From Candidatus Poribacteria bacterium (lineage in GTDB: Bacteria; Poribacteria; DTPJ01; WJIO01): a stretch of DNA of 29,776 nucleotides. Positions 5,595 to 29,776 of the stretch are shown here, in pieces (positions within the stretch are counted from its first letter, which is position 1; each line of letters begins with the position of its first letter). A program made the position numbers and the translations under genes. Location: contig WJIO01000186.1 in NCBI GenBank assembly GCA_014730235.1, positions 1 through 29,776 of the forward strand. Direction: 5' to 3'. The notes beneath the pieces were generated by a model that saw only the letters and a program-made list of their open reading frames with translations, was not told the origin of the DNA and ran no database searches.

Positions 5595-6757
5595 TAAGCT
5601 ACCCCTCGGCTTGCCTTCATTAATATCTGAGCAACTTCAGGACGTGTAAATTCTTCCGGTAAGTCTTTACCTTCTGACAGCATTCCCCGTACTTTTGTTC
5701 CACTCAGAAAAACATGTGATTCTTTTCCATGAGGGCAGGTTTTCCCTGTAGCCATGCCGTCACATTCCTTACAGTAGAAGGCGTGTTCAAATTTTAGCGG
5801 TATAATACCTATTTCTTCAGGCTTAAACTCATCAAAAATTTTCTGTGCATCGTAAGTGCCATAATAATTAGCCACACCAGCATGATCTCTACCTACGATA
5901 AAGTGTGTGCATCCGTAATTTTTTCTTGCTATGGCATGGAGGATTGCCTCTTTTGGACCTGCGTATCTCATAGCTGCGGGAAATACCGACATTACTGTGC
6001 GGTTTTTGGGATAATATTTTTCCAGTATTATCCTGTAACATTCTATGCGTACATCGGCAGGAATATCATCTTTTTTTGTTGCCCCTACCAGGGGATGAAG
6101 CAAAAGACCATCCACAGTTTCCAGAGCGCATTTCTGGATATATTCATGAGCCCGGTGTATTGGATTGCGCGTCTGAAAAGCCACAACACTGCTCCAGCCT
6201 TTATAATGGAAAAGAAGCCTTGTTTCCTTTGGGTCAAGCAGCACGCCCTCTATCTCACCATGATCCGGACGGTTAATCATTACGACATTACCGGCCAAAA
6301 GCACATCACCCTTCTCATATAAAGCTGCAACTCCGGGATGGGCAATATCTGTCGTTCCATAAACGACTTGCGCTTCTTTTTCCCTGTCATAATCGTATTT
6401 CTCATCCAGATATAAGACACCCATCACCTCTCCATTTTGGTCACAAAGTGCTACATCGTTATCCAGGGCATATTTACTTGCATCGTCTTTACTTACAGCC
6501 AGAGTTATTGGGATAGTCCAAGGACAGCCGCTTGCCAGTCGGTTATTTTCAAGTACGCTATTATAATCTTTTTGACCCATAAAGCCTTCAAGAGGACTGA
6601 AAGCTCCTATGGAGATCATCTCCAGATCTGAGATTTCCCTCTTATTTAATGTAACTTTTTCCATACCCGGAATCCGTTCAATTAGATAATCCCGAACAGG
6701 CCCTTCACCAATACTGTTGATTAGCTTGCCGCCGTGCGGATCGATCAAATGCTTCAT
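5594..6757 (-). CDS. sat: Sulfate adenylyltransferase (ATP sulfurylase)
   Basis: 387 aa. It contains the diagnostic QTRNPIHRAHE and GRDHAG motifs and an N-terminal PUA-like domain. Confidence 0.9.
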   Translation of the reverse strand: MKHLIDPHGGKLINSIGEGPVRDYLIERIPGMEKVTLNKREISDLEMISIGAFSPLEGFMGQKDYNSVLENNRLASGCPWTIPITLAVSKDDASKYALDNDVALCDQNGEVMGVLYLDEKYDYDREKEAQVVYGTTDIAHPGVAALYEKGDVLLAGNVVMINRPDHGEIEGVLLDPKETRLLFHYKGWSSVVAFQTRNPIHRAHEYIQKCALETVDGLLLHPLVGATKKDDIPADVRIECYRIILEKYYPKNRTVMSVFPAAMRYAGPKEAILHAIARKNYGCTHFIVGRDHAGVANYYGTYDAQKIFDEFKPEEIGIIPLKFEHAFYCKECDGMATGKTCPHGKESHVFLSGTKVRGMLSEGKDLPEEFTRPEVAQILMKASRGVA

Positions 6758-8743: not shown

Positions 8744-8974
8744 TTAACCTTGCTCTTCCTGGAGCGAGGTTTTTGAGTTAGAAAGTTTTTCAACATACCA
8801 CTCTTCAAAATCTTTCTTGCGTATTATGTAGCTACCTTCTATTTTAACCGCAGGTAGTTTCCCCTCTCTACACCAACGTTGTATGGTTGCAAGATTTTTT
8901 TTGAGAGCTTGGGCCAATTGTTTTGTTGTAAGAAATTCATCCTCAAATACAGGTGGGTTCACCATAACCTCCAT
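8744..8974 (-). CDS. Small HTH DNA-binding protein (excisionase/HTH_17-like) upstream of the polysaccharide operon
   Basis: 76 aa. The segment LTTKQLAQALKKNLATIQRWCREGKLPAVKIEGSYIIRKKDFEEWY matches the excisionase-family HTH. It lies 87 bp upstream of wzc on the same strand. Confidence 0.55.
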   Translation of the reverse strand: MEVMVNPPVFEDEFLTTKQLAQALKKNLATIQRWCREGKLPAVKIEGSYIIRKKDFEEWYVEKLSNSKTSLQEEQG

Positions 8975-9127: not shown

Positions 9128-9919
9128 TTAAAGCTCCTCTAAATTTCTGATTATATAATTCGGTCTTATACCTGTCTTCTCTATATCTTTTTCAGTGCTC
9201 ATTCCTGTAAGAACCAAAGCCGAATCCATACCAAAATCTATAGCACCTTTAATATCAGTTGTAAGCATATCCCCAACCATCAAGATCTTAGATTTTACCA
9301 TATTCATTCTTTCCATTGCCATAACATACATTTCCGGATAAGGTTTACCCATAAGCAGTGCCTCGGTACTGCTGGCTGATTCGATGAAGGCTATTATGGA
9401 ACCAGTACCGGCTTCGATTTCACCGTTTTCTACTGGTCTGGCAAAATCTGGATTTGTGCCTATAAAGGTTGCACCATAAGTAGCGATAGCATTAGCGGCT
9501 CTGCTTCCCATTTCCCAGTTAAATTTCTTATAAAATCCCACAACGACATAATCGGCTTCCCTGTGATATTTAATATCCAGTACCTTCATACCAATTTCCC
9601 GGATAAGCTGTTTGACTGATTCTTCAGATATACAAAACACCTTATTTTTTTCAGGTTTAATTTTTAACTGTTTCTTCAGATAATTTGCAGCAACATTTCC
9701 CGCTGTGATTATGTCGGTTTCATTGACAGTTTCAACCCCAATACGAAGCAGAATAGATTGATACTCTCCGGGTAATTTTGCCGAGTTATTGGTTATAAAC
9801 ATGGTTTTTCGGCCTTCGGACTTCAGTTTATTTATTATTTTAATGGCAGATTCTATAGGTTTATCCCCCCTGTATACCACCCCATCCATATCAAATATAT
9901 AGCCTTCATATGATTTCAT
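9128..9919 (-). CDS. HAD-superfamily subfamily IIA hydrolase (NagD/sugar-phosphatase-like). The start is re-assigned to an internal ATG.
   Basis: Motif I is IFDMDGVVYRG, and the layout is HAD-IIA. The track start at 9964 is a GTG inside a 15-bp tandem duplication. The ATG at 9917-9919 is preceded by GGAGGAAAT, a strong SD, and gives the family-typical MKSYEGYIFDMDG N-terminus. Confidence 0.75.
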   Translation of the reverse strand: MKSYEGYIFDMDGVVYRGDKPIESAIKIINKLKSEGRKTMFITNNSAKLPGEYQSILLRIGVETVNETDIITAGNVAANYLKKQLKIKPEKNKVFCISEESVKQLIREIGMKVLDIKYHREADYVVVGFYKKFNWEMGSRAANAIATYGATFIGTNPDFARPVENGEIEAGTGSIIAFIESASSTEALLMGKPYPEMYVMAMERMNMVKSKILMVGDMLTTDIKGAIDFGMDSALVLTGMSTEKDIEKTGIRPNYIIRNLEEL

Positions 9920-9945
9920 ACCGTAATTTCCTCCAGCCTTTTTCT

Positions 9946-9975
9946 TCACCTGTATTGATTTCACCTGTATTGATT
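9946..9975. repeat. Exact 15-bp tandem duplication (TCACCTGTATTGATT x2) in the HAD 5' leader
   Basis: Direct reading shows identical units at 9946-9960 and 9961-9975. Confidence 0.9.
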
Positions 9976-10088
9976 TATATCCCTAATCTATACTGATCAG
10001 GATATTATAATAAGATACTTAAAGTCAAGTTATTTTCCCTGAAGGTGATCGTTGAAAGGGGAATATATGCTTACTTTTTTCCATTATC

Positions 10089-10248
10089 GTAATTGTTAAA
10101 AAATAGATGGCTCTTCCGGGTTCAGTGTGTTAAAGATAAGAAACTTCTTTATGCTGTCATTCCTGCTTTCGCAGGAATAACAAATTCTGTAGTTAAGCAT
10201 AGAATAAAGCGATTGTTATAAACATAAATTACATTTTTTAACGATTAC
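10089..10248. repeat. ~160-bp intergenic element with terminal inverted repeats (GTAATTGTTAAAAAAT / ATTTTTTAACGATTAC) centred on an ATTCCT-N8-AGGAAT palindrome. It is MITE-like or a regulatory module. Copy 1 of 2.
   Basis: The arms at 10089-10104 and 10233-10248 are 15/16 reverse-complementary. The palindrome at 10159-10178 (ATTCCTGCTTTCGCAGGAAT) is equidistant from both arms, about 64 bp each. A related element is at 26221-26432. Confidence 0.6.
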
Positions 10249-10396
10249 ATTATCAGACTTAACTCTGAAGAAACAAATTTTTTCGTTATATCTCGTTAAA
10301 ATTTTCATTCATTTGGTCAAAAAAAGTAAGCTATATTTAATGCTTATTCGTTATGATTACAAATGAAAACTACATGAATAAAAGGCTTGAAAAGCA

Positions 10397-10425
10397 TTGA
10401 CAAAAACCATGCCAGATGCTATACT
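10397..10425 (+). promoter_or_regulatory. Consensus sigma70 promoter for the LolA-like gene
   Basis: The -35 is TTGACA (10397-10402), the spacer is 17 bp, and the -10 is TATACT (10420-10425). An AGGAGA SD follows at 10442-10447, with the ATG at 10453. Confidence 0.6.
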
Positions 10426-10452: not shown

Positions 10453-11154
10453 ATGAAAACAATTCATTTAGAGATAATTGGAATTATTTGTATCTGTTTG
10501 GTATTTTTTATAATAAATACAGCTACTGCTGCGAGTGTTAAAGAGATAGTCCAAGGGTTCAGGGAAAAATATAAAGAGACCAAAAATTTCAACGCAGAAT
10601 TTACTGAAACTACTGTCATTGCAGGACAAAGGCGCGTTTCAAAGGGATTTGTCAACTTTCAGAAACCTAACTTACTTCGGAAAGATACAAGAGATCCCAA
10701 TAACATGGACAAAACCATACAATTGATCGTCTCTGATGGTGGGACAATATGGGCTTATACACCTATGATTAAACAAGTTACAAAACAAGAGCTAACACAG
10801 AACTCAGATATGGCGGAACTTATGCCTGGGTTTGGTCACTCTCTGGAAAATATTGAAGATAACTATAATATAAAATTTGTTGAAGATAAAGAAGCAGAAA
10901 AACAGGAGATTCACGCTATTGAATTGAAGCCAAAGCTGGACGGCGGCGCGAAAGCATCTTTTGATTACATGCAGGTCTGGATAAGGGATAAAGACCTGAT
11001 TCCCGTTCAGTTTATGTATGAAGATAAAAAGAATCAAATGGTATTTGTCCTTTCGTTTAAAGACATCAAGATAAATCAGAAGTTGGATGAATCTACTTTT
11101 AAATTTGATTTACCTGATGGTGTTCAGGTGATCTCTGTGCCTAAACGGCAATAG
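10453..11154 (+). CDS. LolA-like outer-membrane lipoprotein carrier / lipoprotein-sorting family protein
   Basis: 233 aa with a signal peptide (MKTIHLEIIGIICICLVFFIINTATAAS). The LolA-like core is QGFREKYKETKNFNAEFTETTVIAGQRRVSKGFVNFQKPNLLRKDT. Confidence 0.7.
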   Translation: MKTIHLEIIGIICICLVFFIINTATAASVKEIVQGFREKYKETKNFNAEFTETTVIAGQRRVSKGFVNFQKPNLLRKDTRDPNNMDKTIQLIVSDGGTIWAYTPMIKQVTKQELTQNSDMAELMPGFGHSLENIEDNYNIKFVEDKEAEKQEIHAIELKPKLDGGAKASFDYMQVWIRDKDLIPVQFMYEDKKNQMVFVLSFKDIKINQKLDESTFKFDLPDGVQVISVPKRQ

Positions 11155-13572: not shown

Positions 13573-13632
13573 TCTATATATTACTCACTTAAGGAAATGT
13601 GGGAATAATTTGAAAGTCTTCTAAGCATTGCT

Positions 13633-13652
13633 ATTCCTAACTTCATAGGAAT
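13633..13652. promoter_or_regulatory. ATTCCT-N8-AGGAAT palindrome (site B) with AGGAATAACA 3' extension, identical in half-sites and spacing to site A
   Basis: The sequence is ATTCCTAACTTCATAGGAAT. It lies about 200 bp upstream of cinA. Confidence 0.45.
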
Positions 13653-13850
13653 AACAGTATATAGAAATCTCTTGTGATTACCAAAATTAATTCTGAATAT
13701 CCAAAAAATTTTGAAGAAAATTTGTTGATCAAAACCTCACAAAATCACTTATAAAAGCAGAATTTAGAAAGCCTTTTCTTAAAATTCCCTTTAGTTACTA
13801 TACTTTCACAGTTTTAAAACTATTTATAATGTAATTCAGGAAAAGATTAA

Positions 13851-15105: not shown

Positions 15106-16461
15106 ATGCTATTGATTGGATGTCTTACTGTGTTTGTAAGTTCTATGACGGGCAGTATATCGGATGAAAACATATTTGAATTGGGCATGTGTACCCACTT
15201 CAGTCAGGGAAAAGGGATCGTTGAATCAAATATTTACAGCATGAAAATGGCCGGAATTAGCTCTATCCGGGATGAATCCACATGGAAAGATGTGGAAAGG
15301 ACAAAAGACGTTCTTGAAATATCCGAGAGGATTGATAGATATATTGACCATGCCAATAAAGAGGGCATTGGGGTTATGATGATCCTTGATTATTCCAACC
15401 CTTTTTATGATGATGGTGACAGGCCAAAATCTCCAGAAGCTGTGGAAGGTTTTTGTCGATATTCAGAACATATAGTTAAACATTTTGGGGATAAAATCAA
15501 ATGGTATGAAATCTGGAATGAATGGGATATTCCCATTGGACTTCCACCAAAGCACCAGGAAAAGAACGGTGAACGAAACAGGGGTAAAGCGGAGGATTAT
15601 TTTAACCTTTTAAAAGCTGTATATCCAAGAATCAAGTCTGCCAATCCCGATGCAATAGTTCTGGGCGGATGTCCCACACCCGGAGCCGTCAGAAACGGAT
15701 GGCTTGAAAAGATTATGAAGTTGGGTGCAGTGGATTACTGCGATGCCATATCCATCCATACATATAACTACAGCGCAAAGGGCTTTGACAGGACGCCGGA
15801 AGCGTGGCAGGCATGGATGCTGGAAGTTCAGGCCATGCTACGTAAATATAATAACGATAATGATCCTGATTTTTACGTTACTGAAATGGGCTGGCCGACT
15901 CATGTGGACGAGAGGGGAACATCACCTGAGCTTTCCGCGTCATATTTGGCAAGACTTTATCTCCTGGCCCGGACAATGCCATCTTTTGAGGGCTTATGGT
16001 GGTATGATTTCCAGGATGATGGCTGGAAAGCTGAATATAACGAAAACAACTTTGGAATCATACGTCCTGATTTGACTCCCAAACCGGCTTATTATGTAAC
16101 ATGGGATATATCAGAACTGGTTAAACATGGTGAATATCTAGGCAGAATGAAGACTTCCGACGAGAATCTCTGGTTGCTGCAATTCAAGCTTGATGGTGAT
16201 AATATATGGGCTGTATGGTCAGGGGACGACCAGGAGCGACAGGTTATTTTTGAGACTAAAGATACGGGGATAGATCTGTCGGTTTTGCAAACAGGCCATA
16301 AGCATATGGATATGAAATGGGGCCACAGGGATTGGGTAGATAATAGAGGTCAGCCTTTGATGAAATCCCGGATGTCACTAACTGTTGGACATCGACCTTA
16401 TATTCTGAAAGGTGGATTGGGTAATATATCTGTAGTAGATATTATCCCGCGACCGAGATGA
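15106..16461 (+). CDS. Clan GH-A (TIM-barrel) glycoside hydrolase, GH5/GH39-like, with an N-terminal signal-like segment
   Basis: 451 aa. Strand-4 acid/base motif is WYEIWNEWD, and the strand-7 nucleophile context is YVTEMGWPT. The N-terminus is MLLIGCLTVFVSS. The family cannot be fixed by eye. Confidence 0.55.
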   Translation: MLLIGCLTVFVSSMTGSISDENIFELGMCTHFSQGKGIVESNIYSMKMAGISSIRDESTWKDVERTKDVLEISERIDRYIDHANKEGIGVMMILDYSNPFYDDGDRPKSPEAVEGFCRYSEHIVKHFGDKIKWYEIWNEWDIPIGLPPKHQEKNGERNRGKAEDYFNLLKAVYPRIKSANPDAIVLGGCPTPGAVRNGWLEKIMKLGAVDYCDAISIHTYNYSAKGFDRTPEAWQAWMLEVQAMLRKYNNDNDPDFYVTEMGWPTHVDERGTSPELSASYLARLYLLARTMPSFEGLWWYDFQDDGWKAEYNENNFGIIRPDLTPKPAYYVTWDISELVKHGEYLGRMKTSDENLWLLQFKLDGDNIWAVWSGDDQERQVIFETKDTGIDLSVLQTGHKHMDMKWGHRDWVDNRGQPLMKSRMSLTVGHRPYILKGGLGNISVVDIIPRPR

Positions 16462-24166: not shown

Positions 24167-24952
24167 CTACCTTTCGAGATGCAATTCCAGTCTGTCAACA
24201 AAACTGAATGGAGGCCAGGGACCGTCAAGTTTGAGGGAATACTCATTTCCCATATTTTCGCCTAGTCTATCAATGGCCTTTTCCAGATCAGAACGCATGT
24301 CTTTTTCAATTAGCAAAGTTGCATTAGTTATTGTTGAATCATTGTTTATTTCTTCAACCCGGGCTTCTCCCGGAGGAAGATGGGTTAAAATATCATTGGT
24401 TATCTGTTCTCTGGTTTTTTCCATTCTCTTGTGGAAATAAGTACCAAAATCAATAATTTCCTTACGTCCCAGGGATTTACCCTCGCCCATGTATTTATCC
24501 CGAATGGATCTGAGTTTATCATCCCTGTCAATGAAATACTTAAACACATCATCAACATTCCATTCAACCTTTAATCCCATTTCAACTTTGTTCTTAAGTC
24601 TTTCAAGCTCCTGTCGAATAGTTTGGTAACTTTTACGCAGAGCAATATTAACCTCACCTGCATCTCTAGCTATCTGACCGAATCTGGCAGGAATTGTGGT
24701 AAAAAGCTCTGATGCCTTGCGTATCACTTCATGGTATGGAGCCAGATTTTTCCTGAGAAGTTTAATGGAATCAACACGAGGATAATCACTTACCAGAGCA
24801 CCAATATCTTCATAATGAATGCTATGGACAACTTTATTATCCAGACCTATAGGACCGAAGTTACTTTCCTGATCTGAAAGAATAACAGCGTAAAACAATT
24901 TTCCATAATGGGAGCTTCCGTTATTTACTTTTCTTGTAACTCGCTTTCTCAT
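24167..24952 (-). CDS. gvpF: GvpL/GvpF-family gas vesicle protein (paralogue 2)
   Basis: 261 aa. The C-terminal signature is [13 protein letters not shown]. It has a 4-nt ATGA overlap with the upstream gene. Confidence 0.8.
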
Positions 24953-25986
24953 CGGATCAATAACCTCTCTGCAATAAAAACTTTTTCAACTTCATCTCTT
25001 GAGAACGAAAAAACAGCATTTTTTCCATCTTCAAGAGAACTGCTATAACTATGACAATATGACTCTAAAATTTTATAGGCTTCGTCTATTTCTTTAAAAA
25101 GCTTATATGATTCCTTGTCTCCATCCGTTTTGTCAGGATGGTATTTCAACGCAAGTCTTCGATAGGATGCCTTAATATCATCCAGATGTGCTTTTTCCGG
25201 GAGTTCCAGCCTTCTACGGGCTTTATCAATTAATTCATAATTGCCTTTTTTGAATTCAAGTGGTGCAAAACTATAGGGAGGAATTGGGCCAATATATTTA
25301 AAACTGAGGTAAGATTCATTTTCATTACCAAGTTCCTCCATAGCCTTATCGAATTCTGCTTCATCCTGTCTATTGATGAGATAGCTCCTGTTAAAAATAA
25401 TTGAGTCATCGGCTGATCTACCTTCTGATGAATCAATAGATACATTGGATAATTTGTCGTGAATAGAATCAATAATCTGGCGTTTTAGTTTTTCTGCTGA
25501 CTGGAACAGTAGTTTACCAAGCTGAATTTTATCATTAATGTCAATAGATTTCACAGCCTCTTTAAGCCAGTTTTCATCTTTACTTATATTCTGTAAAACT
25601 GTATCCAGATCCCAGAAAAGCTGAACTGCAAATTCAGCTTTATTGCGAAGGTTATTCAGTGCCCATTTAATATGTATGTAGGAATTGGCCATGAATTCCT
25701 CAACCTGTTCTTCCTGATCCACCATAATTCCAAATCTAAGCGGGAGTATAGTGAGGTTTTGGAATATATTTATATTTATCTGTTGGTAAGATGCAAGAAG
25801 GACTTTAAGTTCAGCTTCATGCATTCCGGGCTGTTCAGCAATAGCAGGATCTATTTTTCTGGTGATAGTTGTAAGATCTTTATAATTTATGCTATGTATC
25901 GTCTCAGGAATGGAAATATATTCATTTTCAAATTTGGTAGTTTCAACGATACAATGAAGCAAGAATGTATTTAATTTTTCTGTCAT
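24949..25986 (-). CDS. GvpL/GvpF-family protein fused to a C-terminal DnaJ J-domain (paralogue 1)
   Basis: 345 aa. The GvpF/L core ends at the signature [16 protein letters not shown] canonical J-domain follows: [59 protein letters not shown], with the HPD tripeptide present. Confidence 0.8.
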
Positions 25987-26132
25987 AATAGGTTAACCTT
26001 TCCAGCAAATTTACAGATCAGTATTTAATTGTAAACTACTATAATTATATATAAAAGGGTGTGACATACTTACGTCACTTTAGTCCTGGTATTTTGTATT
26101 TTGAAATTTAGTCGGGTAAATACAAAAGATTC

Positions 26133-26153
26133 GGGCACGAAAATTTCGTGCCC
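26133..26153. other. Strong perfect hairpin (GGGCACGAAA-A-TTTCGTGCCC) in the gvp internal intergenic region. Possible minus-strand terminator for the gvpC-N-orf107-orf94 unit, or a protein-binding site.
   Basis: Seen directly. On the minus strand it is followed by GAAUCUUUUGUAUUU. Confidence 0.35.
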
Positions 26154-26220
26154 ATTAAAAATGATTGCTTTTGTTAACCTATTTTGTTATGAAATCGCTA
26201 AAAATAAAGATATGTTTACT

Positions 26221-26432
26221 GTAATCGTTAAAAAATGAAAAATGTATTTAGAAAATACTTTTATGATGATGGTAAATTACAAAATTTGTCATTCCTGCGA
26301 AACTCTTATTCCTTTTTACTCAAGCCTTTTCAAAAAGCTTGAAGCAGGAGTCCAGAAAAAACTTATCCAGAAAGACCGGATTCCTGCTTTTGCAGGATGA
26401 CATCATGAATGATATTCATTTCTAACGATTAC
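26221..26432. repeat. ~212-bp element, copy 2 of the TIR-bounded element. It has outer inverted arms GTAATCGTTAAAAAATG / TAACGATTAC and inner inverted arms GTCATTCCTGC / GCAGGATGAC, and includes an ATTCCT-N8-AGGAT palindrome (26380-26399).
   Basis: The outer arms at 26221-26237 and 26423-26432 are 10/10 reverse-complementary, extended to about 19/23. The inner arms are at 26288-26298 and 26392-26401. The left arm plus the GTCATTCCTGC spacing (about 55 bp) parallels copy 1 at 10089-10166. Confidence 0.6.
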
Positions 26433-26434
26433 TG

Positions 26435-26719
26435 TTACTGTTTTAAGATTATTAGTTTTCTATTCCCAATTGTATTTGTAAACCTGACATTTACAACATC
26501 ATTGGGTTTTAGATCCATAAATGACAGCAAGTTATCTGGAATAACAAGTCTATTTGATGAATCCAAACGGGCTAATCCTCTTATAATACCTATAGACCTT
26601 GAAATATTACCATTCAGTTTATGATGACGATTATTAAAACACCTTATATACCTGAAATGTTTTATTTTGCCCGATGTTTTTATATTTCGTCTTGTTTTAA
26701 GTTTAATAATATTTCGCAT
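26435..26719 (-). CDS. Small protein with a C-terminal AbrB/MazE/SpoVT-like swapped-hairpin DNA-binding domain. The start codon is uncertain.
   Basis: The C-terminal 50 aa SIGIIRGLARLDSSNRLVIPDNLLSFMDLKPNDVVNVRFTNTIGNRKLIILKQ aligns by eye to the AbrB N-domain (GIVRKVDELGRVVIPIELRRTLGIAEKDALEIYVDDEKIILKK). The basic N-terminal 40 aa may be a mis-called extension. There are 3 nt between the upstream ORF stop and its start. Confidence 0.45.
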   Translation of the reverse strand: MRNIIKLKTRRNIKTSGKIKHFRYIRCFNNRHHKLNGNISRSIGIIRGLARLDSSNRLVIPDNLLSFMDLKPNDVVNVRFTNTIGNRKLIILKQ

Positions 26720-28081: not shown

Positions 28082-29242
28082 TTAACTCTTTGGATAATAA
28101 AGATTATCAATTTTTTCGACTTTATTTTCATCAACTAAAGGTTTTATAACAGATATAAGGCCTCTCCAATCAACACCCATTTCATTTCCAATATCAACCA
28201 GCTTAATGCCTTCAGGATGTTTACCAATCATTTCCAGAACCTGATCTTCTGTGGAAATATTTTCTTCCTCTTCTTTTTCAGGTGAAGCTTCTTCAGAAGT
28301 CGGTTCTTCGACTTCATCCTGCGGGGTTTCAGGAGAAGGTTCCTCATCCTCATATTCTTCCTCTTCCGATTCAGTTTTTGAAGGTGGTTCTTCAACTTCA
28401 TCATCTTCGGAGGAATCTTCCTGATCTAAAGCCTCTTCGATAACGGTAGTTGTTTCCGTCGTTTCTACCACAGAGGAAAACAATTCTATCCATATATCCC
28501 TTGCTTCTTTTCTGTCAGAAGCTATGCTATTTAGCATTTCATTTATGGCTTTGCTTCGGGCTTCTTCATCAGCAGAAACCTTTTCTCTCAGATTCTTGGA
28601 CATTTCCTGAATATCAGATCTGACACCTTTCATGAATGAATCAACCTCATCTATGAGGCTTTTGGCAGCTTCTTTTCGGGCTTTCTCATCTGAGGCCATC
28701 TTTTCCTGTAAGGCCCTGGATGTCTCTGCCATTTCCGATTTCATATCATCCATAAAGGATTTTACCTCATCCCTGAGCTGATTAACTGCATCGCTTCTTT
28801 GTTTTCTATCGGAAGCAATTTTTTCTTCCAGGGATTTGGACATTTGCTGTAGATCTGATTTTATACTTTCTTTGAAGTTTTTAACTTCGTCCATCAACTG
28901 TTTTGTTGCCTCACTTCGGGCAGCTTTATCGCTGGCCATTTTATCCTGAAGTTCTTTTGACATATCCTGAAGGTCATTTCTGACTTCATCCAGGAATACC
29001 TTAACGTTATCCATAAGCTCTTTTGAAGCCTTCATACGACTTGCTTTATCTTCGGATATCTTATCAGCCAGAGCTTTGGACATATCCTGACGCTCTAATT
29101 GGAAACGTTCTATGAGGTTATGAGTATCAGATTTCATCTCACTGACTTTGACGTGACGATCCTCGGTGGAGGCCCTACGGTTTTCAGCAGATGCTTTTAT
29201 ATCCTCTACCAGATTCCGCATTCCATTACTCAATTCACCCAT
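28082..29242 (-). CDS. gvpC: GvpC-like repetitive gas-vesicle surface (scaffold) protein candidate: about 6 tandem 40-41-aa amphipathic repeats, an acidic E/D/S/P-rich linker and a ~55-aa C-terminal globular tail
   Basis: 386 aa. Repeats such as DMSKELQDKMASDKAARSEATKQLMDEVKNFKESIKSDLQ, QMSKSLEEKIASDRKQRSDAVNQLRDEVKSFMDDMKSEMAE and TSRALQEKMASDEKARKEAAKSLIDEVDSFMKGVRSDIQE have the same period. Its position between gvpA and gvpN matches the canonical gvpA-gvpC-gvpN order. Confidence 0.6.
   Translation of the reverse strand: MGELSNGMRNLVEDIKASAENRRASTEDRHVKVSEMKSDTHNLIERFQLERQDMSKALADKISEDKASRMKASKELMDNVKVFLDEVRNDLQDMSKELQDKMASDKAARSEATKQLMDEVKNFKESIKSDLQQMSKSLEEKIASDRKQRSDAVNQLRDEVKSFMDDMKSEMAETSRALQEKMASDEKARKEAAKSLIDEVDSFMKGVRSDIQEMSKNLREKVSADEEARSKAINEMLNSIASDRKEARDIWIELFSSVVETTETTTVIEEALDQEDSSEDDEVEEPPSKTESEEEEYEDEEPSPETPQDEVEEPTSEEASPEKEEEENISTEDQVLEMIGKHPEGIKLVDIGNEMGVDWRGLISVIKPLVDENKVEKIDNLYYPKS
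28460..29215. repeat. Intragenic tandem DNA repeats of ~120-123 bp encoding the 40-41-aa GvpC-like repeats
   Basis: Periodicity is seen at the protein level, and at the DNA level as recurring ...GACATnTCCTG...TTTnAnnTCATC... blocks. Confidence 0.65.
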
Positions 29243-29490: not shown

Positions 29491-29709
29491 TTATGCAGGA
29501 ACAGCGGCGGTAGCGGTTAGACCAACGGCTTCTGCATATTTCAGGTATGTGTCAACTGAGGCAACTACGACGCGAGCTTCAACAGCCAGTATTTCGATAC
29601 CGACCAATGATACTCTTGCCCAAGCATCTACCACAATACCTTTGTCAAGAATGCGATCTACAACTTCTGCCAAACTACTTGAATCCATTGTCTTCTGTAC
29701 TGAAGCCAT
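29491..29709 (-). CDS. gvpA: GvpA, major gas vesicle structural protein
   Basis: 72 aa. [52 protein letters not shown] is near-identical to the canonical GvpA core. A perfect SD GGAGG (rc of 29719-29723) lies 9 nt upstream of the ATG. Confidence 0.95.
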
Positions 29710-29776
29710 TAGTAAATACCTCCTTCTAAAGGTTAAACAAAAAATATATTAACATAATTGTTTCATAATATGTTAG

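Follow-up and report, generated by a model that had tools for sequence, protein, structure and literature searches.

Miniature inverted-repeat transposable elements (MITEs) have been reported in the genomes of gas-vesicle-forming cyanobacteria (PMC2779907, PMC3542288). A different kind of small repeat is built on a hairpin. The Neisseria repeat dRS3 is ATTCCC-N8-GGGAAT, and the longer NTS, CGTCATTCCCGCGMAVGCGGGAATCYRG, is a 28-nt oriented hairpin repeat that is linked to Ssn nucleases (PMC11893778). NTS-like 'Ssn-related motifs' (SRM) occur across phyla, and small GIY-YIG nucleases bind and cut them in the form of single-stranded DNA; cleavage depends most on the GTC ahead of the NTS palindrome, and binding on the C that follows it (PMC11893778). 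Here, we describe two intergenic regions, 10089-10248 (copy 1, 160 bp) and 26221-26432 (copy 2, 212 bp), in a stretch of 29,776 bp that is one complete contig (GC 37.5%) of a metagenome-assembled genome (MAG), the NCBI 'Candidatus Poribacteria bacterium'. We refer to this whole stretch as the window. We suggest, with a probability of about 55%, that the two regions are old, diverged copies of a MITE-like non-autonomous element with an NTS-like hairpin as its core. A small mobile repeat is an ordinary, already known kind of element; the pair in Poribacteria is new, and a literature search found no paper linking MITEs to Poribacteria.

Both regions are bounded by arms of the form GTAAT(T/C)GTTAAAAAAT. 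The 10-mer GTAATYGTTA is present exactly four times in the window, always at element ends, as two inverted pairs. The features of the two elements, and of a solo hairpin found elsewhere in the window, are as follows.

10083-10088: copy 1 left flanking direct repeat, ATTATC, which abuts the arm and recurs identically at 10249-10254; candidate target-site duplication
10089-10104, plus strand: copy 1 left terminal inverted repeat, GTAATTGTTAAAAAAT
10105-10155: copy 1 variable (B) half, not alignable to the other halves; its length equals that of the A half
10156-10181: copy 1 central dRS3/NTS-like hairpin, GTCATTCCTGC-TTTC-GCAGGAATAAC, with 10/11 stem pairs and GTCAT/GTTAT 5' ends on either strand
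10182-10232, minus strand: copy 1 conserved (A) half, homologous to 26237-26287
10233-10248, minus strand: copy 1 right terminal inverted repeat, the reverse complement of GTAATCGTTAAAAAAT
10249-10254: copy 1 right flanking direct repeat, ATTATC
13630-13655: solo hairpin, GCTATTCCTAA-CTTC-ATAGGAATAAC, with no arms, in the 278-nt gap from the CDP-alcohol phosphatidyltransferase gene to cinA (a gap of 29 nt in the syntenic locus L033)
26213-26220: copy 2 left flanking repeat, TGTTTACT, an imperfect candidate target-site duplication, one indel different from 26433-26439
26221-26236, plus strand: copy 2 left terminal inverted repeat, GTAATCGTTAAAAAAT, perfect
26237-26287, plus strand: copy 2 conserved (A) half
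26288-26355, plus strand: copy 2 hairpin a, GTCATTCCTGC-GAAA-(41 extra nt)-GCAGGAGTCCAG, NTS-like; the GTC head is kept, as is the C that follows the palindrome
26376-26401, minus strand: copy 2 hairpin b, GTCATCCTGC-AAAA-GCAGGAATCCGG, NTS-like and convergent with hairpin a
26417-26432, minus strand: copy 2 degenerate right terminal inverted repeat, the reverse complement of GTAATCGTTAGAAATG, with 3 mismatches or one indel
26433-26439: copy 2 right flanking repeat, TGTTACT, overlapping the stop codon of a small gene (26435-26437)

The terminal inverted repeats (TIRs) are 16 bp long, and in copy 1, they are complementary at 15/16 positions. An earlier note on this DNA had listed the arms, a shared interior motif, the palindrome, and an inner inverted pair in copy 2, all of which are where it placed them. 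It was also right that 10233-10248 is the reverse complement of GTAATCGTTAAAAAAT at 26221-26236, and its claim that copy 1 is symmetric, with about 64 bp to each arm, agrees with the 64.5 nt that we measured from the hairpin centre to either arm. Its statement that arms bound both copies needs a qualification, since all four arms were located but the right arm of copy 2 is degenerate (GTAATCGTTAGAAATG). Inside the elements, GTCATTCCTGC is located at 10156-10166 and 26288-26298, and the 41 extra nt of hairpin a contain an inner hairpin, CAAGC...GCTTG (26321-26341). The sequence ATTCCTGC-N4-GCAGGAAT is present at 10159-10178 and again, with 2 mismatches, at 26380-26399. When up to 3 mismatches are allowed, it has 3 matches in the window, compared with 0.17 expected. 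The spacing between an arm and ATTCCTGC is 78 nt in three of the four half-elements, and this arrangement never occurred in 100 shuffles.

Over 87 nt, and with about 75% identity, the left half of copy 2 (26217-26302) can be aligned to the reverse complement of the right half of copy 1 (10167-10252). Because of this alignment, the two elements are judged to be homologous and in opposite chromosomal orientation. The local alignment score is 72-75, while the shuffle null is 22 ± 3, and nhmmer gave E = 2e-21 and 1.4e-20. The homology ends at the arm ends. The A halves are conserved between the copies (P < 0.001; 32/54 ungapped identities), whereas the B halves show no significant similarity (P = 0.16). 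Although the copies are otherwise about 75% identical, they share the arm 18-mer TGTAATCGTTAAAAAATG without any change. The extra length of copy 2 is mainly about 41-90 nt in or next to the hairpin. The 87-nt homology and the equal 78-nt spacing had gone unmentioned in the earlier note, as had the flanking repeats and the membership of the palindrome in a widespread dRS3/NTS-like hairpin family.

As single strands, both elements fold far better than shuffled sequences, with z = -3.05 for copy 1 and z = -6.10 for copy 2; this is the outcome of a folding check that the earlier note had proposed. Neither element has coding capacity. The open reading frames (ORFs) within them are of at most 52 aa, at chance level, absent from the protein collection, and unannotated as judged by PGAP numbering. 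A 71-aa ORF merely starts in the right arm of copy 2, and it is likewise absent from the protein collection and not annotated by PGAP.

A second proposed check, for target-site duplications, gave candidates at both copies. Copy 1 has an exact 6-bp ATTATC on both sides; across the window, repeats this long or longer abut at equal spacing with a frequency of about 7e-4. At copy 2, TGTTTACT faces TGTTACT (TGTT-ACT), with one indel; repeats of 7-9 bp with no more than one edit have a null frequency of about 4e-3. Both tests were set up after inspection of the data, so these null frequencies are indicative only. Because the flanking repeat of copy 2 holds the stop codon of the adjacent small gene, that gene ends alike with or without copy 2, and excising copy 2 plus one flanking repeat leaves its end unchanged.

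The relatives that we compared are loci L001, L002, and L029-L035, among which L029-L032 are gvp loci and L033-L035 are lolA loci. None of the relatives in the collections is close; the best non-self matches have 72% identity for HAD, 57-60% for GvpF/L-DnaJ, and 60% for LolA. The gene order in the gvp relatives is conserved: gvpA, a C-like protein, gvpN, a 108-126-aa protein, a 59-65-aa protein, and gvpF/L-DnaJ. The gap from the small gene to gvpF/L-DnaJ, in which copy 2 lies, has these lengths.

L031 and L032: 72 nt
L030: 121 nt
L029: 484 nt
This contig: 448 nt

The long gap of L029, the closest gvp relative, contains an unrelated G5/C5-rich palindromic repeat at 5739-5928, in which two 74-nt tandem units are enclosed by perfect inverted arms of 40 nt. 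Thus, this intergenic site tolerates insertions. The HAD relatives are not syntenic and are uninformative on copy 1, so the lolA relatives were taken instead. Upstream of lolA there are 48 nt in L033 and 177 nt in L034 and L035, compared with 533 nt in this contig, and the upstream neighbour is different in each. By motif match, nhmmer, or blastn, we found neither the arm motif (GTAATYGTTARAAA) nor any element-like sequence in L001, L002, or L029-L035. This absence from the related loci points to lineage-specific insertions and away from a conserved operator.

The 16-bp TIRs, the flanking duplications, the lack of coding sequence, the strong folding, the homology that ends at the arms, and the absence from relatives fit a MITE-like element. 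Its layout would be a 16-bp TIR (GTAATCGTTAAAAAAT) at each end, a conserved 54-nt half, a central hairpin GTCATTCCTGC-N4-GCAGGAAT, and a variable second half. We propose that each copy inserted once, at a permissive intergenic spot, through a transposase encoded elsewhere in the genome, and that 6-8 bp of target was duplicated. Copy 1 would have landed between the divergent promoters of HAD and lolA. It is upstream both of a near-consensus promoter-like site for lolA, TTGACA-17-TATACT (10397-10425), and of the best candidate on the HAD side (10028-9999), and its position is a neutral landing place. Copy 2 is inside the gvp cluster, 2 nt past the stop codon of the small gene that closes the gvpA-gvpN transcription unit, and it is followed by a terminator-like hairpin at 26132-26154 and then by gvpF/L-DnaJ. 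It would have landed there, past the last gene of that unit and ahead of the terminator. Afterwards, it would have gained about 50 nt around its hairpin, which is now a convergent pair, while its right arm decayed. The earlier note had put both copies upstream of operons. This is true of copy 1, in the HAD/lolA divergent gap, but not of copy 2, which is within the gvp cluster, after the gvpA-gvpN unit, and not ahead of the main operon.

Does either copy have an effect at present? On the gvp sense strand, copy 2 itself has a terminator-like site (26381-26365), and the minus-strand RNA folds with z = -6.6 when copy 2 is taken together with the terminator downstream of it. Copy 2 may influence the 3'-end formation or the stability of the gvpA-operon mRNA through this added secondary structure. 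Any present-day effect is probably small.

Several observations weigh against a transposed element. Just two copies are known, and both are in one 29.8-kb contig; the metagenome and viral collections gave no further copy with arm plus hairpin. The window contains no transposase, and no full-length insertion sequence (IS) with these ends is known. The relatives are all distant (at most 72% amino-acid identity), so an empty site cannot be aligned at the nucleotide level. The flanking repeats are unequal, 6 vs 7-8 bp, and the second is imperfect; taken alone, that of copy 2 is only suggestive. Conservation of the A half but not of the B halves could reflect selection on part of the element. The orientation of the A half, which faces the 5' end of the next gene in both copies, at the similar distances of 204 and 234 nt, would also fit a regulatory role, although the orientation alone is a 1-in-2 coincidence.

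The searches for further copies covered three collections. In genome_contigs, which does not include the source MAG, the arm-plus-hairpin pattern gave 23 single matches in unrelated taxa, none of them Poribacteria. The sole carrier of the hairpin among the 23, L025 (Chloroflexota), has no second arm, and its similarity extends over 25-28 nt; we treat its arm as a chance match. In metagenome_contigs, the strict pattern gave two matches, both to the same very AT-rich sequence with no hairpin, which is also chance. In the viral collection, the arm 18-mer has one isolated match, and there were 0 matches to the perfect hairpin or to the arm-plus-hairpin pattern. Within the window, a full third copy around 13630-13655 was ruled out by a local score of 29, which is inside the null range, and similarity to the elements outside that solo hairpin is not significant. 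An arm-like 16-mer at 29753-29768, near the contig end, agrees at 12/16 positions by eye, which we judge to be the chance level, since by our own estimate, about 17 such sequences are expected in the window.

The central palindrome GTCATTCCTGC-N4-GCAGGAAT is represented by four hairpins in the 30-kb contig, one in copy 1, two in copy 2, and the solo hairpin. By their sequence, these resemble the dRS3/NTS/SRM family while strictly falling outside its published definitions. The sequence here, ATTCCTGC-N4-GCAGGAAT, is neither the exact dRS3 nor the exact NTS. In comparison with NTS, the hairpin is GTCATTCCTGC-N4-GCAGGAATCC(A/G)G, with one compensatory stem pair changed from C-G to T-A; this T-A variant can also be written GTCATTCCTGC-N4-GCAGGAATCCAG. 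Both copy 2 hairpins keep the oriented flanks of NTS, GTC...GCAGGAGT-C-CAG and, on the minus strand, GTC...GCAGGAAT-C-CGG. By contrast, the copy 1 hairpin has the GTC but A or G after the palindrome, so that the 3' C is lost. The SRM pattern, HGTCWYN(0-2)YYVSBRHN(0-5)WNVSBRGN(0-2)RNCYNB, gave 0 matches on either strand of the window and misses all four hairpins; the stem T falls on a V position. The symmetrised hairpin of copy 1, which lacks the 3' C and has a GTCAT-type head on each strand, would be the expected remnant of a collapsed convergent doublet.

Hairpins of this type are not confined to the window. In the viral collection, ATTCCTGC-N4-RCAGGAATGAC has 53 copies in 33 loci; a single contig of 44.9 kb carries up to 8 of them, and the contigs range in GC from 34 to 68%; our own estimate of the chance expectation for this pattern is <1. 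These hairpins have constant flanks, CTGG...GAC, and they frequently form convergent doublets in which the stems differ and the flanks are the same, as in copy 2. No GIY-YIG gene was found near them in the 33 loci by a crude regex motif scan, which is a weak test. These 33 loci, the IMG/VR contigs L036-L068, carry the hairpin in the form (CT)GGATTCCTGC-N4-GCAGGAATGAC, for example at 202-224, 6457-6479, and 9390-9412 of L051 and at 8617-8685 of L038. In the IMG/VR doublets, the partner hairpin has another stem with common GTCAT...ATCCAG flanks.

These external hairpins bear on the alternative that survives best, in which the hairpin itself, single or as a convergent doublet, is the dispersed unit of an intergenic mosaic like those of repetitive extragenic palindromic (REP) sequences, REPINs, or NIMEs. 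The arms and the A half would then be adjacent modules, the flanking repeats would be coincidental, and the spread would be due to recombination, or to an enzyme that acts on the hairpin (such as a RAYT, an IS110-type recombinase, or an Ssn-linked process), with no TIR transposase. We regard this as possible but unlikely. It would account for the recurrence of the hairpin alone at 13630-13655 and for the 53 exact variants in the viral loci, often in convergent doublets like that of copy 2. There is also a precedent in Neisseria, where repeat modules bounded by dRS3 hairpins build intergenic mosaics. However, the layout here is the reverse of the Neisseria one, with the hairpin central and the 16-mers terminal, and the arms accompany 0/53 of the external hairpins. 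Furthermore, two independent flanking repeats, at frequencies of about 7e-4 and 4e-3, would be unexpected from recombinational spread, and the window has no RAYT, IS110-type, or GIY-YIG gene.

It is improbable that the arms bound an invertible segment (inverton), which a recombinase encoded elsewhere would flip, so as to reorient a weak A-half promoter toward lolA or the gvpF operon and give phase variation, including that of buoyancy. The 16-bp inverted repeats do enclose 128-180 bp, a typical inverton size, the copies are in opposite chromosomal orientation, and weak promoter-like sites leave the A half toward the downstream gene, ATAACA-17-TAGAAT (10177-10205) and ATGACA-18-CATCAT (26292-26263). 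However, at 9/12, these sites do not exceed the chance level, which is 4.7-5.8 such sites in the regions, and two terminator-like hairpins (26154-26132 and 26078-26061) stand between the copy 2 site and gvpF/L-DnaJ. Flanking direct repeats are not an inverton feature, the right arm of copy 2 is degenerate, the window has no recombinase, and the related gvp clusters lack the element.

The earlier note had offered a MITE or a conserved operator as alternatives. The second would be a shared cis-regulatory module, with the inverted 16-mers as paired operators of one factor that co-regulates lolA/HAD and gvp; candidate factors encoded in the window are the small AbrB-like protein by copy 2 and the HTH_17 or HTH_25 proteins. 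The perfect retention of the arm 18-mer TGTAATCGTTAAAAAATG, the identical arm-to-hairpin spacing in three half-elements, and the DNA-binding proteins encoded nearby would agree with this. We nevertheless consider it very improbable. Despite their conserved gene order, none of the related gvp and lolA loci that we compared has the motif. Copy 2 is between a stop codon and a terminator-like hairpin and not at a promoter, and copy 1 is outside the best promoter-like sites of both neighbours. The homology covers 87 contiguous nt, which extends beyond binding sites, and the flanking direct repeats are present. Thus, of the two alternatives, the MITE-like one stands, on its TIRs, flanking repeats, homology limits, lack of coding, and absence from relatives.

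A structured RNA, either a small RNA or a stabiliser or terminator module of 3' untranslated regions (UTRs) that was duplicated and retained for its fold, is scarcely credible. In its favour are the minus-strand fold across copy 2 and its terminator (z = -6.6) and the terminator-like site 26381-26365 in a 3' UTR position. However, the inverted repeats of a DNA element account fully for the fold, and Rfam gave no match at gathering thresholds or even at E ≤ 1. Copy 1 is in a divergent promoter region, where neither the element nor its lolA-side flank contains a terminator-like site, and two sequences are too few for covariation. By eye, the arms are unconvincing as integron attC sites (core sites in the wrong order, no cassettes), as Xer/dif sites (5-7 of 11 matches), as LacI/cre-type operators (one good half-site only), and as sigma-54 promoters.

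The gene map of the window was made from Pfam and NCBIfam models, and it contains no transposase, recombinase, RAYT, IS110-type, or GIY-YIG gene. The genes around the two elements are as follows.

Minus strand: polysaccharide and sulfate-activation cluster, from Pfam/NCBIfam
8744-8974, minus strand: HTH_17 excisionase-family gene, 1.1 kb from copy 1
9128-9919, minus strand: HAD-IIA hydrolase gene (MBD3182379.1), with its real start at the ATG at 9919 and GGAGG ahead of this ATG
10453-11154, plus strand: LolA-like gene (MBD3182380.1)
Plus strand, after the LolA-like gene: RodZ-like HTH_25 protein, MiaB-like enzyme, CDP-alcohol phosphatidyltransferase, CinA, 451-aa protein, LigT
Minus strand, gvp cluster, first part: gvpA (29491-29709), 386-aa repeat protein, GvpN, 107-aa protein, small conserved protein
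Minus strand, gvp cluster beyond copy 2: GvpF/L-DnaJ (MBD3182399.1), GvpF, GvpG, 3D-domain protein, GvpO, GvpA/J, GvpK
Minus strand, gvp cluster, last part: GvpJ, Hsp20-like protein, two GvpF paralogues, 189-aa protein, CDC48-like AAA ATPase

The small gene next to copy 2 (26435-26719, minus strand) is, on the strength of its alignment, a real gene: the C-terminal 54 residues of its product align with the 59-aa protein at the equivalent position in a relative, with 33% identity and E = 2e-11. The 94-aa ORF call is probably too long at the N-terminus. Judged by eye, the product looks AbrB/SpoVT-like, and no Pfam or NCBIfam model matches it. A larger HTH_17 protein is encoded just downstream of the gvp cluster in the relative L031 (7824-8567); neither it nor the HTH_17 gene in the window has an established link to the elements.

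Two gvp components are unusual. The 386-aa protein after gvpA (28082-29242, minus strand) has repeats of about 33 residues, an acidic stretch, and a C-terminal domain; it is in a GvpC-like position with no family match and is conserved in relatives. The other is GvpF/L fused to a DnaJ J-domain (24949-25986, minus strand), which is also conserved in relatives. In L029 (1-1758) and L030 (1-2770), gvpA is preceded by sigma-54-activator response regulators, together with a histidine kinase in L030. This suggests that the gvp genes are under sigma-54-dependent control in this lineage; the window stops 67 nt upstream of gvpA. A perfect tandem duplication at 9945-9976, with 2.1 copies of TTCACCTGTATTGAT, is just upstream of the HAD ribosome-binding site. 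The 451-aa ORF between cinA and ligT (15106-16461, plus strand) has no Pfam or NCBIfam match, and because cinA directly precedes ligT in the syntenic L033, this gene looks, from synteny, like a lineage-specific insertion.

For annotation, both stretches are best marked as repeat or mobile-element DNA, and not as gas-vesicle regulatory sites, when the expression of the cluster is modelled or engineered. The dRS3/NTS-like hairpins, recently tied to site-specific single-strand nucleases, are now found in a Poribacteria MAG and on many contigs of the viral collection, in the form of a T-A stem variant that escapes the published SRM pattern. Here, the hairpin is at the exact centre of a TIR-bounded unit, and if this were general, it would bear on how such hairpins spread. 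A bolder version of this idea, which we hold to be improbable, is that the element is a vehicle for spreading Ssn-type hairpins, that is, a TIR-bounded, duplication-making unit with an oriented nuclease-recognition hairpin, or a convergent pair, as its invariant core. If so, it would provide a mechanism for hairpin dispersal across genomes and phyla, and it would tie transposition to the control of recombination or transformation near loci such as the gas-vesicle cluster.

How does the element compare with known systems? The inverted repeats of the IS66 family start with GTAA and are accompanied by 8-bp duplications; for example, ISDge4 has the TIR GTAACTGCTCAGCA and the direct repeat CCTCGATG (PMC12898284). 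The element described here starts with GTAAT, and the flanking repeat of copy 2 is 7-8 bp. However, the agreement is limited to the first four bases, the repeat of copy 1 is 6 bp, and no IS66 transposase is seen, so a relation of the element ends to IS66 is a lead only.

With REP, REPIN, and BIME sequences, the hairpins share the form of short intergenic palindromes, single or in inverted doublets, whose stems vary while pairing is kept. The differences are that there is no GTAG-type head here and no RAYT gene is seen in the window. To our knowledge, REPINs have neither target duplications nor inverted 16-mers as termini, about 56 nt away from the hairpin. Like dRS3 and NTS, the hairpins are dispersed, multi-copy, and oriented, and they are often in convergent pairs. 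In contrast to Ssn systems, the window has no GIY-YIG gene, and NTS repeats have not been described within TIR-bounded units.

Among bacterial MITEs, the comparison is with the Correia elements of Neisseria, the pneumococcal RUP, and the cyanobacterial MITEs of gas-vesicle-forming Microcystis and Anabaena. The present element differs from these in having two copies only, no known cognate IS, a TIR that matches no tested family, and repeats of 6 vs 7-8 bp, and we know of no NTS-like hairpin core described for the Correia, RUP, or cyanobacterial MITE families. In common with them, it is 100-250 bp long, has no ORF, is bounded by TIRs, and has short target duplications; it occupies intergenic sites and folds strongly as a single strand, and its copies diverge and decay.

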